From a virus (taxonomy: Duplodnaviria; Caudoviricetes), in the IMG/VR virus record IMGVR_UViG_3300032954_000018, positions 1 to 54,164 of that record: a stretch of DNA of 54,164 nt; one strand, written 5' to 3'. Positions 196 through 36,552 of the stretch are shown piece by piece; the first letter of the stretch is position 1; every line of letters starts with the position of its first letter. Made by a program: the position numbers and the translations under genes. The notes beneath the pieces are model-generated. The model made no database searches, was not told the origin of the DNA, and saw only the letters and a list, made by a program, of their open reading frames with translations.

Positions 196-263
196 TTCTG
201 AGAGAACAAGACGTGGGGAAAGGAAATAGTATAAAATAAACCCACACCATGCGCTACTCAGAA
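196..263 (-). ncRNA. Y RNA-like unit C (no tRNA cargo)
   Basis: Minus strand TTCTGAG-TAGCG...GTTCT-CTCAGAA closing stem; inner GTGGG/CCCAC stem; same scaffold as the other units. Confidence 0.6.
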
Positions 264-271
264 GGATTGAA

Positions 272-353
272 TTAGGGGAACTAGCGGAACGGAGACTGCC
301 CCGAGGGGCGGTTTTCACATTGAAAGAAGTATCCGTTTCCTATCGCCACCTAA
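272..353 (-). ncRNA. Y RNA-like unit B
   Basis: TTAGG-TGGCGA-TAGGAAACGG-ATACTTC...CCGTTCC-GCTA-GTTCC-CCTAA. Confidence 0.7.
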
Positions 354-364
354 ACTTTATTGAA

Positions 365-432
365 TATCGAGGAATAAGCGGAACAGTTTGTTTTCTTTTT
401 CATAGAAGTAACTGCTTCCTTCGCCATCGATA
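365..432 (-). ncRNA. Y RNA-like unit A
   Basis: TATCGA-TGGCGAAG-GAAGCAG-TTACTTC...CTGTTCC-GC-TT-ATTCC-TCGATA; contains GNCGAAG motif; begins at the predicted TSS. Confidence 0.72.
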
Positions 433-5860: not shown

Positions 5861-6007
5861 TTTGCTCCTGTTCTCGTCTACGTATAGCGGCAAAGTACCC
5901 AAATGGATAAGTCTGCCTACAGTTCGGGCAGGACCAATTGGACATACCTTCCACAAGATAAGCCCCACAGCAAGGACTATCCATGTCCCATAAATCTCCC
6001 TTTTTTG

Positions 6008-6080
6008 TGGGCCTGCTAGGATTTGAACCTAGAACCAAAGCATTATGAGTGCTTCGCTCTAACCGTTGAGCTACAGGCCC
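6008..6080 (-). tRNA. tRNA-CAT, Ile2 (lysidine)-like
   Basis: GGGCCTG-TA-GCTC AACGGTTA GAGC-G-AAGCA CTCATAA TGCTT-TGGTT-CTAGG TTCAAAT CCTAG-CAGGCCC-A; CCA not encoded. Confidence 0.9.
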
Positions 6081-21567: not shown

Positions 21568-22401
21568 TCATACCAGAACCTCCATTGTGATGTGGTCAAT
21601 GATTTGCTTGGCAGTATCCCGAATTGTTTGGAGAGAATCCTTAATCTGCGTAGCTGTAGCATTCCACGCAGCAAGGTAGAATTGGGAGGGCTGCTCAACG
21701 CCGAAATACTGCATAACCATATAGCTTACAGATTCGGCCTCAAGTTCACGCTGTTCTTTGCTTGGCGGTCTCTCCGGGTTAAAATGGCGATGGTGCAATA
21801 ACTCATGGGCTAACTCATGGGCTAATGTGCCAGCCTGTTCCATGCTGAGCATGGATTTTCTAATCTTGATTTGGTGGTTCGAAGAGGAGGAACCTTTGGT
21901 ACCCTCGGGGAGATTGTCTGTATATTCAATATCAGCACCAATCTCCTTAGCCGCTGATTCTAAAGCAGCTACAATCATCGAACCATCCCCATCAGCCCGA
22001 TACTTAACATCAAGATCAGGCAAAGGCTCACCCTCGGTATCTGATACGTCGAAAACGTACACAGCCCGAAACCCATACAATCTGCTGGATTTAGGATCGT
22101 TGGGGTCATAGTTTGGGTCATCGGGCTTGATCTTAGCCAGCAACGGGGCTAGGATAGAAATACCCTTTGCACCCTTCTTAACATTCCGGTTAAGAGTCTT
22201 CCAAGTATTAAATTCCGCAACCCGCGTAGCATCGGGACGTTGCATCCAGATAAGTATCTGGTTACCCCATGAATACTCATGGAATGCCGCGCTAGTACGC
22301 AGATAAGCTTTAAACAACTCAGTCTGCGCAGCAGCATCGGTCATGCTAGCCAGATTCTCTATCCAGCCGTCGATTTTGGCTAGAAGAATCTTACTGTCCA
22401 T
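21568..22401 (-). CDS. ArdC-like ssDNA-binding domain fused to zincin metallopeptidase
   Basis: YS..N..LI..Q.P.AT.V..F..W....R.VKKG.KGI.I..P, VFDVSDT, HELAH and E.EAE motifs. Confidence 0.88.
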   Translation of the reverse strand: MDSKILLAKIDGWIENLASMTDAAAQTELFKAYLRTSAAFHEYSWGNQILIWMQRPDATRVAEFNTWKTLNRNVKKGAKGISILAPLLAKIKPDDPNYDPNDPKSSRLYGFRAVYVFDVSDTEGEPLPDLDVKYRADGDGSMIVAALESAAKEIGADIEYTDNLPEGTKGSSSSNHQIKIRKSMLSMEQAGTLAHELAHELLHHRHFNPERPPSKEQRELEAESVSYMVMQYFGVEQPSQFYLAAWNATATQIKDSLQTIRDTAKQIIDHITMEVLV

Positions 22402-22588
22402 TGGCCACCCTCTCAATCATCCGGATCAATAGGCTCATCCACATCATCCTGAGAATACGGCCTATCCATAATCTCAGGGCGATACTGCGATCTCTTCTTA
22501 CTCTCGCAGTCCTCGCAGACATAATCACAGAAAATTCCGTTACCATCGTAGAGTGGATAACGAAACTTTCCAGACCCACACCGGCAAG

Positions 22589-28863: not shown

Positions 28864-29105
28864 TGCGCAACCAAGATACTTTTTCCAAAAATCTTTATGT
28901 GGTAGTTTGGGCAGGCTGTACTATTCCACTTTCTGGAAGAAGTTTTGATAACGAAGAAGAAGCAATAGAGATGTTTAAAGTTTGGATAGATCAACCGGGA
29001 ATACGGATTGAACGGATGATGGCGGCTTTCGTGTTTGATACTCTTTTTACAAAAACTACTTTTGAGAAATATATTGATGAAAACAATAGAAAATCTGGAA
29101 GCTGA
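28863..29105 (+). CDS. Hypothetical protein
   Basis: TAATG coupling. Confidence 0.6.
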   Translation: MRNQDTFSKNLYVVVWAGCTIPLSGRSFDNEEEAIEMFKVWIDQPGIRIERMMAAFVFDTLFTKTTFEKYIDENNRKSGS

Positions 29106-29520
29106 AGAATGGAGACAAGTTAAAAATAGTCTTGATCTTTATCAAGTATCAAATAAAGGAAGAATAAAGAGAATATGTGAAACCCATGAACGATTGCTTA
29201 AAACCCCTCCTACTGCGTTAGGATATCTAAGATTTAATATTAGCATAAACAATAAATCAAAATCTAAGTACGTTCACGTAGCCGTAGCAGAAGCTTTTAT
29301 ACCAAATCCTGAGAAAAAACCCACAGTGAATCACAAAGACGGAGACAAGACTAACAATTGCGTAGGCAATTTAGAATGGGCTACCCGAAGTGAAAACAGC
29401 CAACATGCTTGGGACACCGGATTGTTTAGTCACGAAAAAATGAAATCTTCTCAATTATTAAGGCGGAAAAAAGAAAAAAGTTTGAAAGAAAACCTCATAA
29501 CACAGATTTTGGGTGTATAA
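29077..29520 (+). CDS. NUMOD4-HNH homing endonuclease
   Basis: EEWR....Y.VSN.GRIK; VH..VA.AF; VNHKDGDKTNN...NLEW.T..EN..HA. Confidence 0.9.
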   Translation: MKTIENLEAEEWRQVKNSLDLYQVSNKGRIKRICETHERLLKTPPTALGYLRFNISINNKSKSKYVHVAVAEAFIPNPEKKPTVNHKDGDKTNNCVGNLEWATRSENSQHAWDTGLFSHEKMKSSQLLRRKKEKSLKENLITQILGV

Positions 29521-29527
29521 TAGATAC

Positions 29528-29694
29528 TAGGAGAAAATATGACGTAGAAGAATGTGAAATACTTCTATATATTTGTTACTTCCCGCATGTAGGTTCGACT
29601 CCTACCAGACTGTTGTAAGGTCTGTTCTCCTGTATCGGAAAAGGGAACCCGTAAGGGTGCTGAAAGATTAATTCCTGTATCTTGTGTTCTCCTA
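29528..29694 (+). ncRNA. Y RNA-like unit 1 (permuted T-arm/acceptor/D-like cargo; divergent closing stem)
   Basis: TAGGAGAA/TTCTCCTA stem; GTTACTTC; GTAGG-TTCGACT-CCTAC; CAGAC/GTCTG; starts 7 nt after TATAAT 29516-29521. Confidence 0.6.
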
Positions 29695-29701
29695 TTTAAG
29701 T

Positions 29702-29815
29702 TTCGAGTAGCGATAGTTACAATTCCATCATTAGTTCGAATCTAATAAGCCCCCCAAAATTTATGGGGCTTACGCCTAGTTGGTTAGGCAGTATTGTAGC
29801 GCAAGTTCTCTCGGA
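29702..29815 (+). ncRNA. Y RNA-like unit 2, YrlA topology
   Basis: TTCGAG-TAGCGA...ATTAG-TTCGAAT-CTAAT (T), AAGCCCC/GGGGCTT (closed acceptor), GCCT-AGTTGGTT-AGGC (D)...GTTCT-CTCGGA. Confidence 0.8.
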
Positions 29816-29903
29816 CAGTTTCGCAGGCCGTTTTGGTGATTCTGAGCGTTTTGCAAACGGGAGCAGCCCGATATAGCTGCTTAAGTTATAACCGCTTCGG
29901 CGG

Positions 29904-30043
29904 ATTCAAATAGCGATAAAAACAGTTACTTCTTTCGCCGCCATCTTTGGCGAAATAGCTCAGCGGTAGAGCATCCACTTCATACGTGGAAGGTCGTGGG
30001 TTCGAATCCCATTTTCAGTTCTGTTTTGCCTGTTCTTTTGAAT
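29904..30043 (+). ncRNA. Y RNA-like unit 3 carrying a circularly permuted tRNA-Met(CAT)
   Basis: ATTCAAA-TAGCGA...AGTTACTTC-TTTCGCC-G-CCA-TCTTT-GGCGAAA-D-anticodon CAT-T...GTTCT-TTTGAAT. Confidence 0.8.
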
Positions 30044-30050
30044 AATTTTC

Positions 30051-30096
30051 GGGAGTGTCCCTCAAGACTATCGGGTAAAAACCGAAACTCCCACCA
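30051..30096 (+). ncRNA. Mini tRNA-like element ending ACCA
   Basis: GGGAGT/ACTCCC-ACCA enclosing GTC/GAC and TCGG/CCGA hairpins. Confidence 0.45.
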
Positions 30097-30099
30097 AGT

Positions 30100-30199
30100 T
30101 TGGGTAGTGTTCATTACGAGTACATCAACTGGATAGATGAATTGTCATAGACAATGTGTTGCCGATTCAATCCCGGCCTCGTATGTTTTGTTCTCCCAA
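30100..30199 (+). ncRNA. Y RNA-like unit 4 carrying a non-permuted cloverleaf with a 3-nt anticodon loop
   Basis: TTGGG-TAGTG...TACGAG/CTCGTA, CATC/GATG, ATTGTC-ATA-GACAAT, GCCG/CGGC...GTTCT-CCCAA. Confidence 0.68.
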
Positions 30200-30243
30200 T
30201 AATTTTAAAGCCTGAGTAAATCCAAAGTGTAGTGGCTTTAATA

Positions 30244-30323
30244 GCAAGTAGTGAAAGTGTCAGTTACTTCTATATTTACTCAAAAATAAACAGAAAAAAC
30301 AACTGTCACGCTAGTTCTCTTGC
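30244..30323 (+). ncRNA. Y RNA-like unit 5 (no tRNA cargo)
   Basis: GCAAG-TAGTGA-AAGTGTCAG-TTACTTC...CTGTCAC-GCTA-GTTCT-CTTGC. Confidence 0.72.
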
Positions 30324-30520
30324 AACAATTTAACCCGACTCGCGTTGGGTTTTCCCCGGCTCCGAGGGAGAGTGAGATCGCAGGTACTACCTGCAAAAGA
30401 TGCTTACCAATCGGGCAAATCTTCAGGGGCGCAATGCCCCGAATCAATACGTTCCGGAACGTAATAAATCCTGAGGTTGATCTATCGATTAATCTATCCT
30501 ACCTTTAAGAGGCTACTCTC

Positions 30521-31123
30521 ATGGCTAATGTAAATTCCAGTAATGGATTTTCTGGGCTTCCCGCACAGAGCATCACTACCACCACAGAAACTACTCTGCT
30601 TGTTCCCGCTGCTTCTGCACTTTATCAGGGCCTTCCTTCCCCGATATTTGCTGCTGGTGCGGGTCTTTATCTTGCGCTTGATCCTGATTTCCAGTCTGGG
30701 AATCCCCAAGCCGCTTCTCCTACCTACGTCAATTCAAGCGTAGATGGAAAGCAATTCCGTATTCGTGTGGTCGGTCTTGTTACCGTTGGCGCATCCAGCA
30801 CCTTCGTTTGCAAGCTCTATCAGGGTACCAGTTCGACAGTCGGTAACGATACCGTGGTTGCGGCTTCCGCTTCCTACACTATCACCACTGCCTCCACTAT
30901 CAACTTCGTCGTAGAGAGCAATTTCCTCTGGGACAGCACTTCGAGCAAGCTTAACGGCTGGTTCTTCACTGATGTTAATAACGTGTTTACTGGTGCGGCT
31001 GCTACTACTGCGATTGCATCTCTCAGCGTTACTTCCCTTCAGTTTATTCCCAGCTTTACTTTCGGCACTTCGAATGCCGCGAATACTGTCACCGTGAAGG
31101 AATTCCTGCTCGAAAAGGTGTAA
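30521..31123 (+). CDS. Putative virion (decoration) protein, paralog of 43843-44529
   Basis: Thr/Ser/Ala-rich; shared G..FR.RV.G and NFV.E....WD.TS..L.GW motifs. Confidence 0.7.
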   Translation: MANVNSSNGFSGLPAQSITTTTETTLLVPAASALYQGLPSPIFAAGAGLYLALDPDFQSGNPQAASPTYVNSSVDGKQFRIRVVGLVTVGASSTFVCKLYQGTSSTVGNDTVVAASASYTITTASTINFVVESNFLWDSTSSKLNGWFFTDVNNVFTGAAATTAIASLSVTSLQFIPSFTFGTSNAANTVTVKEFLLEKV

Positions 31124-31169: not shown

Positions 31170-31532
31170 ATGGCGGTACGTAAATATTCAGACCGAAAAG
31201 CCTACCTAATACGTAAAGTATCAGAACGTAGACAAGAACTTAGGAAAAAGATCGTAAATGTTCTTGGAGGTAAGTGTATTTTTTGTGGATATTCATCCTA
31301 CGTAGGAGCGTTAAACGCACATCACATAGACCCTTCGACCAAAACTTTTGGCCTCAGTAATAAGGGATTATGTAGAAGTTGGGCGAAGATTTTATCAGAG
31401 CTAAAGAAGTGTGTTTTACTTTGTTCTAATTGTCATGCTGAAATTCATGCCGGACTGAAAATAATTCCGGAAGAAGATATACAATCGGCAAAAGCAAAAG
31501 TAGAAGCCGCAGAAAAATCTCTGAAGGAGTAA
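31170..31532 (+). CDS. HNH endonuclease
   Basis: LGGKC..CGY...L..HHIDP...EL.KC.LLC.NCHAE.H. Confidence 0.88.
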   Translation: MAVRKYSDRKAYLIRKVSERRQELRKKIVNVLGGKCIFCGYSSYVGALNAHHIDPSTKTFGLSNKGLCRSWAKILSELKKCVLLCSNCHAEIHAGLKIIPEEDIQSAKAKVEAAEKSLKE

Positions 31533-36474: not shown

Positions 36475-36552
36475 AGCTGGGTAGAGTAGTCCGGTCCAAC
36501 TCGCCGTCCTCATAAGTCGGAGACATGGGTTCAAATCCCATCCAAGCAACCA
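36475..36552 (+). tRNA. tRNA-CAT, degenerate initiator-like
   Basis: AGCTGGG...GAGT/ACTC D-arm, CCGTC-CTCATAA-GTCGG, ATGGG-TTCAAAT-CCCAT, CCAAGCA-A-CCA; mismatches at 1:72, 5:68 and in the anticodon stem. Confidence 0.8.

Follow-up and report, generated by a model that had tools for sequence, protein, structure and literature searches.

A tRNA-shaped module with swapped ends in a candidate new phage RNA family

We investigated a Caudoviricetes contig of 54,164 nt (IMG/VR record IMGVR_UViG_3300032954_000018; estimated completeness 47%), the whole of which is called the window below, and within it a plus-strand element at 29905-30042, here named unit 2 (U2). The cargo of U2 is a complete tRNA-shaped module whose ends are swapped and whose acceptor is closed as a hairpin, and it is carried by a scaffold that is a real, repeated, and covarying RNA element. 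We hold, with moderate confidence, that U2 is a unit of a new family of phage non-coding RNA (ncRNA), a tRNA mimic similar in design to the YrlA type of Y RNA and possibly opened by RNase P. As modeled, U2 looks like a mimic of a tRNA and not like a working tRNA gene.

The permuted module and its scaffold

A first-pass annotation, made from the sequence alone, had described a complete circularly permuted tRNA-Met(CAT) at 29933-30016; all of its coordinates for the element are as claimed, read directly from the sequence, and the matches, folds, and conserved nucleotides that follow bear the description out. ARAGORN called a tRNA-Met(cat) at 29949-30021, and the Rfam tRNA model (RF00005) matched with 56.2 bits (gathering score 29) over model positions 4-67 of 71, so that the ordinary order lacks three acceptor positions at each end. 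The D, anticodon, and T arms are present, with the tertiary nucleotides conserved in RF00005, and canonical nucleotides occupy 14 of the 14 conserved tRNA positions checked (U8, A14, G18, G19, A21, U33, A37, C48, G53, T54, T55, C56, A58, and C61). What U2 lacks is the tRNA feature of an acceptor built from the 5' end and a downstream 3' end with a free NCCA: in ordinary order, the downstream strand offers four Watson-Crick pairs and one G-U pair, and two of the seven acceptor positions cannot pair.

The RNAfold minimum free energy (MFE) structure of 29905-30045 (-38.5 kcal/mol, z -2.92) is the permuted cloverleaf inside two further stems, and its energy was equalled by 2 of 200 shuffles. Pair probabilities were 0.60-0.83 for the closed acceptor versus at most 0.0002 for the ordinary one. 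Explicit structure energies were -32.4 kcal/mol for the closed form, -25.5 kcal/mol for a mixed form with GGC on the upstream GCC and GAAA on the downstream UUUC, and -20.5 kcal/mol for the ordinary form. When the 40 upstream bases were shuffled, a 7-nt complement plus NCCA lying 3-10 nt before G1 arose once in 200,000 shuffles.

The scaffold recurs. A repeat search found units spaced about 200 nt apart, with starts at 29702, 29905, and 30099, and a motif-plus-complementarity scan gave 10 matches in the window versus a mean of 1.6 in shuffles. There are seven scaffold units in the contig, U1-U4 (29702-30323, plus strand) and Ua-Uc (198-431, minus strand), and three more in the closest relative, L017; together they make up the ten-unit alignment A1. 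The Ua-Ub-Uc array is flanked by a minus-strand gene on each side and lies at the contig's left end. All ten units follow one plan. The outer stem has 5-6 bp; next come a bulged U and two pairs (AG/CU or GG/CC), then an asymmetric internal loop with the consensus YGAWA on its 5' side and GCNNKUU on its 3' side, and last an inner stem of 6-9 bp. We considered a K-turn in this internal loop and rejected it on inspection, its 3' strand having no tandem G-A. The string (N)TACTTCT at the start of the cargo is common to U2, U4, Ua, Ub, and the L017 units X and U4'. Seven units were measured and have cargos of 28-95 nt; that of Uc, as read from its predicted fold, has about 22 nt.

Pairing in A1 reached 92.8% of 152 cells versus 66.3% after shuffling, with double-sided changes in 14 of 16 pairs and a covariation score of 0.847 versus 0.318 (none of 500 shuffles reached 0.847). 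Sliding the partner strand by 1-3 columns left at most 55% paired; here the structure was derived from the same sequences, which favors the true register over its slid versions. The compensatory-change counts and a cross-unit control are independent of this bias. In the control, the 5' and 3' strands of a unit paired with each other at 100% (outer stem) and 97% (inner stem), and strands taken from different units at 59% and 49%. A covariance model built from the aligned units, R1, recovered all ten and found one untrained match (44.1 bits, E 1e-7) at L001:2628-2703, the same sequence as L018:2128-2203. This eleventh unit sits directly 3' of a tRNA-Trp in a more distant relative.

Among G001-G004, R1 matched G001 only. 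Rfam scans at gathering and E-value thresholds found only the tRNA and no family match for any scaffold unit. A sample of 151 Bacteroidota genomes gave no R1 match, a search with strict filters and no positive control that carries little weight. A 16-mer from the U3 leader had 18 viral matches, none with a scaffold unit, and a search with the SprT-like neighbor protein returned no further relatives. With its 11 units, the scaffold is, on comparative grounds, a candidate new phage RNA family.

The cargo is tRNA-like in three of the four units of the U1-U4 array, joined to the scaffold at three different cloverleaf positions. The inner stem of U1 occupies the position of the anticodon stem, and the cargo consists of a T arm (29730-29746), a closed 7-bp acceptor, and a D arm. 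U2 keeps all four arms, with the scaffold exiting between T stem and acceptor 3' strand. The inner stem of U3 is the acceptor stem of a tRNA-like cargo in ordinary order; its L017 ortholog (L017:662-759) is 87% identical, is called a tRNA by ARAGORN, and has an inner stem with covarying changes relative to U3. In U4, Ua, Ub, and Uc the cargo is short and either A/U-rich or a hairpin, and the L017 ortholog of U4 (L017:873-943) shows compensatory changes. That three of four units bear tRNA-like cargo in three permutations, with U3 kept in L017, argues that tRNA-likeness is selected.

Some smaller features accompany these units. U1 shares the TAGCGATA loop with U2, and a run of six C before AAAA leaves it with a CCA-like string after the acceptor strand. 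By eye, a candidate minihelix with an encoded CCA (GGGAGT...ACTCCC-A-CCA) can be discerned at 30051-30095, just before AAGTTT and U3, and L017 has a longer CCA-ending tRNA-like candidate element at the matching place (590-656). AAGTTT lies directly 5' of scaffold units (29698, 30096, and about 350 on the minus strand) and of tRNAs in relatives (L001 2143); it may mark a site of processing or belong to a promoter, and it fits the preference of RNase E. About eight tandem copies of TAAGTTTTA occur at L003 2775-2850.

We propose that the RNA would be made as part of a plus-strand ncRNA array and would display its tRNA mimic on a protein-binding scaffold, on the same principle as YrlA Y RNAs. The cargo runs from tRNA position 66/70 round to 65/69, and its predicted fold is a full cloverleaf with the acceptor closed by G-CCA-UCUUU. 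Given the 7-bp acceptor, the U at -1, and G73-CCA, host RNase P can probably cut before G29949. If UCUUU were then trimmed, two pieces would remain, kept in contact by the scaffold and the pairing of the acceptor stem, as a tRNA-like RNA whose CCA end is free. Decoding seems unlikely; more likely, the RNA would titrate or recruit some factor that binds tRNAs, for example a synthetase, an enzyme of tRNA modification or processing, or an anticodon nuclease of the host. There are precedents: the YrlA of Mycobacterium smegmatis, with its 7-bp acceptor, is cleaved by RNase P and carries CCA at its end (PMC4201824), permuted bacterial tmRNA genes yield two-piece RNAs, and RNase P processes closed acceptor loops (PMC3978253). 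A more far-reaching version sees a modular ncRNA system in which one protein-binding scaffold takes interchangeable tRNA modules cut from tandem or circular tRNAs. U2 would then be an RNase P-opened, two-piece, CCA-ended, possibly chargeable tRNA(CAU) mimic that acts while the phage infects, for example by decoying an anticodon nuclease of the host or some other defense aimed at tRNAs. We think this version unlikely; if it were true, the array would show the route by which tRNA mimics of the YrlA type are born.

Table 1. Positions of the scaffold units, the parts of U2, and other genes in the window.
Feature	Position	Strand	Evidence or remark
U2 whole: scaffold and permuted tRNA cargo	29905-30042	+	MFE fold; model R1, 59.4 bits over 29906-30041
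U2 outer stem, 5' strand TTCAAA, partner 30037-30042	29905-29910	+	6/6 pairs; pair probability 0.66-0.98
U2 5' internal-loop motif TAGCGATA: bulged U, AG paired with CT 30035-30036	29911-29918	+	Invariant T, G, G in A1; pair columns 8-141, 9-140
U2 inner stem, 5' strand AAAACAG, partner 30021-30027	29919-29925	+	7/7 pairs; in MFE
Scaffold apical motif TTACTTC, continuous with TTTC	29926-29932	+	
Acceptor 3' strand TTTCGCC (tRNA positions 66-72), placed upstream	29933-29939	+	7 perfect pairs with 29949-29955
Acceptor-closing loop: discriminator G 29940, CCA 29941-29943, TCTTT 29944-29948	29940-29948	+	Sequence
Acceptor 5' strand GGCGAAA (positions 1-7)	29949-29955	+	Followed by TA 29956-29957
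D arm GCTC-AGCGGTA-GAGC	29958-29972	+	Rfam tRNA alignment; followed by A 29973
Anticodon arm TCCAC-TTCATAC-GTGGA	29974-29990	+	CAT at 29981-29983; ARAGORN, Rfam
AGGTC between anticodon arm and T arm	29991-29995	+	
T arm GTGGG-TTCGAAT-CCCAT	29996-30012	+	Rfam tRNA alignment
Second TTTC (positions 66-69 in ordinary order), right-hand junction	30013-30016	+	Followed by AGTT
U2 inner stem, 3' strand CTGTTTT	30021-30027	+	Pairing analysis
U2 3' internal-loop motif GCCTGTTCT	30028-30036	+	Conserved; invariant TTC in A1
U2 outer stem, 3' strand TTTGAA	30037-30042	+	Pairing analysis
U1	29702-29815	+	Fold z -2.60; R1, 55.7 bits
U3	30100-30199	+	Folding, pairing, R1
U4: scaffold with 35-nt A/U-rich cargo	30244-30323	+	R1, 69.4 bits
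Second array: Ua 366-431, Ub 272-353, Uc 198-261	198-431	-	R1, 52-61 bits
tRNA(CAT) gene	6007-6080	-	
ORF with RF-1 (GGQ) domain, 122 aa	26905-27273	+	PF00472, 36.9 bits; ArfB/peptidyl-tRNA hydrolase kind
HNH endonuclease gene	29035-29520		Left flank of RNA array
200-aa gene, no family assigned	30521-31123		Right flank of RNA array
Second HNH gene	31170-31532		Right of 200-aa gene
Terminase large subunit gene	33474		Downstream of second HNH gene
tRNA(CAT) gene	36475-36552	+	51.5 bits; mismatches in acceptor and anticodon stems
Portal/adaptor gene	36560		Downstream of terminase

Origin of the module and setting of the array

The distance from T29933 to T30013 is 80 nt, which is a 75-nt tRNA including GCCA plus the 5-nt spacer TCTTT, so that the cargo of U2 is one exact period of a head-to-tail or circularized tRNA. 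Spacers between tRNAs in the arrays of relatives are usually 1-6 nt. The upstream TTTC aligns with the scaffold-native CTTCTTTC (Ub) and CTTCTTTTC (L017 U4'), and the left junction thus looks like microhomology; the TTTC belonging to the scaffold completes the 7-bp closed acceptor. The closest relative, with 89% amino acid identity in the 200-aa protein, has homologs of the hairpin at 29855-29888 and of U3 and lacks U1 and U2. Between the two homologs it carries a scaffold unit, X, with an unrelated cargo. The exact 80-nt period, the TTTC junction over a scaffold-native motif, and the other cargo in the L017 slot strengthen the earlier suggestion of a recent tRNA capture through a tandem or circular intermediate. 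Probably, a segment of tandem or circular tRNA was copied at the TTTC microhomology into a scaffold unit that already existed. By analogy, the tandem-duplication and circular-RNA routes proposed for permuted tRNA genes (PMC3978253) fit such an origin. A duplication of the tRNA 3' end at an att site was considered as well and rejected on inspection, the copy lying 5 nt upstream of the same tRNA.

More distant relatives hold an ordinary tRNA array at this locus, with tRNAs for Pro and Ala, a CTA-anticodon tRNA, and a tRNA for Trp. The CTA-anticodon tRNA (amber-reading; labeled Pyl by ARAGORN) lies at L001 2148-2222, L005 2318-2392, and L018 1648-1722, upstream of the 200-aa gene. Over 57 nt, the body of U2 shares 79% identity with this CTA tRNA, and over 56 nt it shares 85.7% with a tRNA-Ile of a Caulobacter phage. 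The first-pass annotation had pointed to related phages as a place to look for an unpermuted ancestor, and none was found with an exact 19-mer of the anticodon arm. The 19-mer had no viral match and three genome matches, all in apparently coding sequence and none a tRNA by ARAGORN; at that stringency, neither an unpermuted ancestor nor an exact source was found. The pattern TAGCGATA..TTTCGCCGCCA, used in search of a U2 homolog, gave four matches in viral contigs, all apparently coding and with the RNA absent. A pattern of scaffold, T loop, and GTTCT had no match in viral contigs (IMG/VR), and in a blastn search of 50,697 phage records (INPHARED) the 1-kb region matched five, in ordinary tRNA bodies alone. 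Exact patterns and neighbor proteins were the sole routes into the collections, so that the absence of U2 elsewhere is weakly supported. About 100 nt upstream of U2, the stretches 29819-29839 and 29869-29878 are 71-90% identical partial copies of the acceptor hairpin and of the acceptor/D junction; their similarity suggests an older, decayed copy.

The plus strand is the direction of the genes from about 24 kb on, and 29521-30279 contains no ORF of at least 50 aa on either strand (neighboring genes are listed in Table 1). In a terminator scan of the locus, the T arm itself was the sole match. The ORF with the RF-1 (GGQ) domain sits 2.6 kb 5' of the RNA array, and farther away the minus-strand ORF 21568-22416 joins an ArdC N-terminal (anti-restriction) domain and an IrrE/M78 peptidase domain in one protein.

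Y RNA membership and rival explanations

The first-pass annotation had also placed the module in a Y RNA scaffold. A conserved, covarying scaffold with a Y-RNA-like layout does exist, and U1 has the arm order of YrlA; the identification as a Y RNA did not hold to the same extent, with no Ro gene found, 9-13 bits from a YrlA model, and no R1 match in any of six Ro-phage loci. For comparison, we read the RNAs adjoining the Ro-like genes of six phages. They form tandem units with a terminal stem, a 5' G-Y-C-G-R motif, a UCGGUUAYC element, and a cargo that is tRNA-like (YrlA) or not, and our scaffold likewise has a terminal stem with an internal loop or bulge and a variable module. A Y RNA was expected to have a Ro60/Rsr (TROVE) gene on its own strand no more than about 4 kb away, and no such gene accompanies the array in the contig. 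A six-frame search for TROVE (PF05731), which found the domain in the positive controls Deinococcus and B. thetaiotaomicron, gave no match in the 54-kb contig (47% complete), in G001, or in the 98%-complete G002, the last of limited value in that G002 also lacks the scaffold.

The motifs are similarly mixed. PMC4201824 describes the YrlA motif GNCGAAN0-1G near the 5' end; no exact copy occurs on the plus strand within 29300-30700, and U1 and U2 have AGCGATA(G/A), with four of the six specified letters. The loop of Ua (366-431, minus strand), UGGCGAAG, is an exact match (GGCGAAG), and the other units approximate the motif (unit consensus URGYGAWAG). Real phage Y RNAs also deviate from it (GCCGAGAG, GTCGGATG), and a CGAA motif has been used to identify Y-like RNAs in Thermus phage phiLo (PMC12135203). 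The 3' loop of the scaffold, GCNNGUUCU, differs from the CAUG/CAACUU of real Y RNAs. A covariance model from four phage YrlAs, R2, scored 64.2, 60.8, and 51.5 bits on three YrlAs outside its training set (the last beside a TROVE gene in a Bacteroidales genome); with filters off, it gave 9.3 bits to U1 and 12.9 bits to U2, over the anticodon and T arms only. In turn, R1 matched no real Y RNA in the six Ro-phage loci and one bacterial Ro locus, and the Rfam E-value scan found no Y RNA family.

Arm order separates the two tRNA-like units: U1 shows the YrlA order of hairpin, T arm, closed acceptor, and D arm, and U2 runs from closed acceptor through D and anticodon arms to the T arm. It had been claimed that U2 differs from YrlA in keeping the anticodon arm and in its point of permutation. 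The former is weakened by the 7-nt-loop hairpin that real YrlAs carry before the T arm (CUCAUAA in the Bacteroidales YrlA), and the latter stands, the break between T stem and acceptor strand being new. Compared with the YrlAs examined, this break point and the contiguous D and anticodon arms are what is new in U2. Real phage YrlAs, too, can have CCA in a closed acceptor loop (Myrna, by alignment). In the Bacteroidales YrlA (L026 288-430, beside the TROVE gene), the loop of the pre-T hairpin is tRNA-Met-like and the acceptor loop ACAUCUUUU resembles the GCCAUCUUU of U2. In Rhodococcus phage Trina (L030 2021-2370), an annotated 209-nt 'tRNA-OTHER' pseudogene lies just 5' of the Ro gene and overlaps two YrlA-model matches, and a Band-7-like gene lies 3' of the Ro gene. 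Given that the membership tests failed or fell short, we file the scaffold as a new family that is like a Y RNA scaffold in its workings, membership being unproven.

Several observations weigh against a functional tRNA mimic. U2 was seen in one contig only and is absent from L017; with no homolog found, its cargo is without comparative support, and the intact tRNA body could be young. An isolated T arm at 29588-29604, which matches the tRNA-Pro of the more distant relatives, speaks of tRNA decay nearby, 29819-29839 is only a 71%-identical copy of part of the acceptor hairpin, and the T stem of U3 has an A-C mismatch; decayed tRNA pieces within 1 kb and the flanking HNH genes together form a pattern that fits turnover. 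A promoter scan of the locus found no sigma-70-like promoter, and G73 is atypical for Met or Ile tRNAs. Both strands are broken at the T/acceptor junction, which makes coaxial stacking, and hence recognition by RNase P, uncertain. The main rival is a neutral recent capture, in which illegitimate recombination or template switching lately put a tRNA segment into a scaffold unit of a tRNA/ncRNA array that changes fast; the shape would be intact because it is young, and the cargo would have no function of its own. The uniqueness of U2 and the different cargo in the L017 slot are in its favor, as are the TTTC microhomology at the junctions of an insert of exactly one period, the fragments and partial copies nearby, the HNH genes on both flanks, and a scaffold that tolerates cargos of about 22-95 nt. 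We nevertheless consider it a possible but tentative explanation: it has to contend with the recurrence of tRNA-likeness in three of four array units, in three permutations and with U3 retained in L017, with the intactness of 14/14 conserved positions and all arm pairs, and with an insertion that makes a perfect 7-bp closed acceptor with the scaffold's own TTTC. Somewhat more doubtful, and overlapping with the tRNA mimic that we prefer, is a true Y RNA with a divergent Ro60/Rsr-binding scaffold, whose U1 and U2 would be YrlA-type RNAs linking Ro, supplied by the host or encoded in the half of the phage genome that the contig lacks, to PNPase or another effector. The layout of the Ro-phage arrays (tandem units, terminal stem, 5' motif, UUAY element, and cargo), the exact motif in UGGCGAAG with close variants in other units, and the YrlA arm order of U1 all agree with it. 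They are set against the missing TROVE domain in the contig, G001, and G002, the R2 scores of U1 and of part of U2 compared with those of the untrained YrlAs, the failure of R1 on real Y RNAs and of Rfam to name a Y RNA family, and the unlike 3' loop GCNNGUUCU.

We regard it as improbable that the units are processing or stability hairpins, that is, RNase III-type sites or protective or terminator hairpins in polycistronic transcripts, with the content of the tip irrelevant. They are intergenic and in the local gene direction in two places, U-rich runs (TAATTTT) follow U2 and U3, AAGTTT precedes several units as well as tRNAs in relatives, and the design of stem, internal loop, and stem resembles phage T7 RNase III sites. 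But three or four tandem units exceed the needs of processing, the recurrent tRNA-like cargo is left unexplained, and the terminator scan found the T arm only; moreover, a loop conserved over 11 units while the stems covary suggests a specific ligand. Very improbable, finally, is a permuted tRNA gene proper, cut at the two TTTC junctions, ligated to a circle, and opened by RNase P into an ordinary tRNA(CAU), the route taken in Cyanidioschyzon and Thermofilum. The order of the gene parts, the encoded CCA, and the short intervening loop match the Thermofilum-type cases (PMC3978253), and joining C30016 to G29937 would restore a perfect tRNA. Against this, the predicted folds showed no bulge-helix-bulge on inspection, the termini being a 3-bp helix with bulges of 1-2 nt followed by scaffold, and the flanks form a scaffold common to units whose cargo is not a tRNA. 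The ligase RtcB (PF01139) had no match in the contig, G001, or G002, and the splicing endonuclease is not known from bacteria or phages. With no RtcB and no bulge-helix-bulge by inspection, maturation to a normal tRNA is unlikely, and the earlier proposal that U2 is a precursor yielding a real tRNA by cleavage and ligation found no support.

Comparison with known tRNA-like RNAs

That Y RNAs mimic tRNAs is already known; the purpose and origin of the mimicry are not understood. In the phage described here, one short array sets the same scaffold on tRNA-like modules at three cloverleaf positions, one of them a complete cloverleaf whose closed loop contains an encoded CCA. The three attachment points, the L017 slot with another cargo, and the microhomology-like junction allow a direct test of how a tRNA mimic is born from a tRNA array. 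If RNase P opens the closed acceptor, U2 would be a natural two-piece tRNA-like RNA in a phage. The candidate family itself has strong covariation and no Rfam match, and its partner protein could be fished out.

Among known systems, YrlA (PMC4201824; bioRxiv 10.1101/312249) shares with U2 a terminal stem with an internal loop that bears a tRNA-like module, the acceptor of which is a closed hairpin. In both cases tandem units lie within or beside phage tRNA arrays, and the arm order of U1 is the same. The 7-bp acceptor is shared with the M. smegmatis YrlA, in which it is opened by RNase P and ends in CCA. The two differ in the break, which in YrlA lies at the anticodon stem or before the pre-T hairpin and in U2 between T stem and acceptor strand, and in the D arm and canonical anticodon arm that U2 keeps contiguous. 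They also differ in scaffold sequence (9-13 bits with the YrlA model), and the contig search found no Ro gene near U2. Compared by description only, Yrn1 of Deinococcus radiodurans has a possible anticodon-like arm and a Y stem in place of the acceptor end, which is the arrangement of U3; it is without a full D arm and has a 6-nt loop (PMC4201824).

The permuted tRNA genes of red and green algae and of Thermofilum pendens (PMC3978253) also have the 3' part upstream of the 5' part with a short intervening sequence, and in Thermofilum the CCA is encoded. Their processing, as described there, involves a bulge-helix-bulge, a splicing endonuclease, and a ligase and ends in a normal tRNA, while the termini of U2 are buried in a shared scaffold and no such machinery was found. 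The two-piece tmRNA made from permuted ssrA (Keiler et al., 2000, cited in PMC3978253) lacks an anticodon arm and has an mRNA module and SmpB, and U2 has no detected homology to it (ARAGORN reported no tmRNA). In its architecture, however, it is alike: a permuted tRNA-like domain has the CCA strand upstream, and excision of the acceptor loop leaves two paired pieces.

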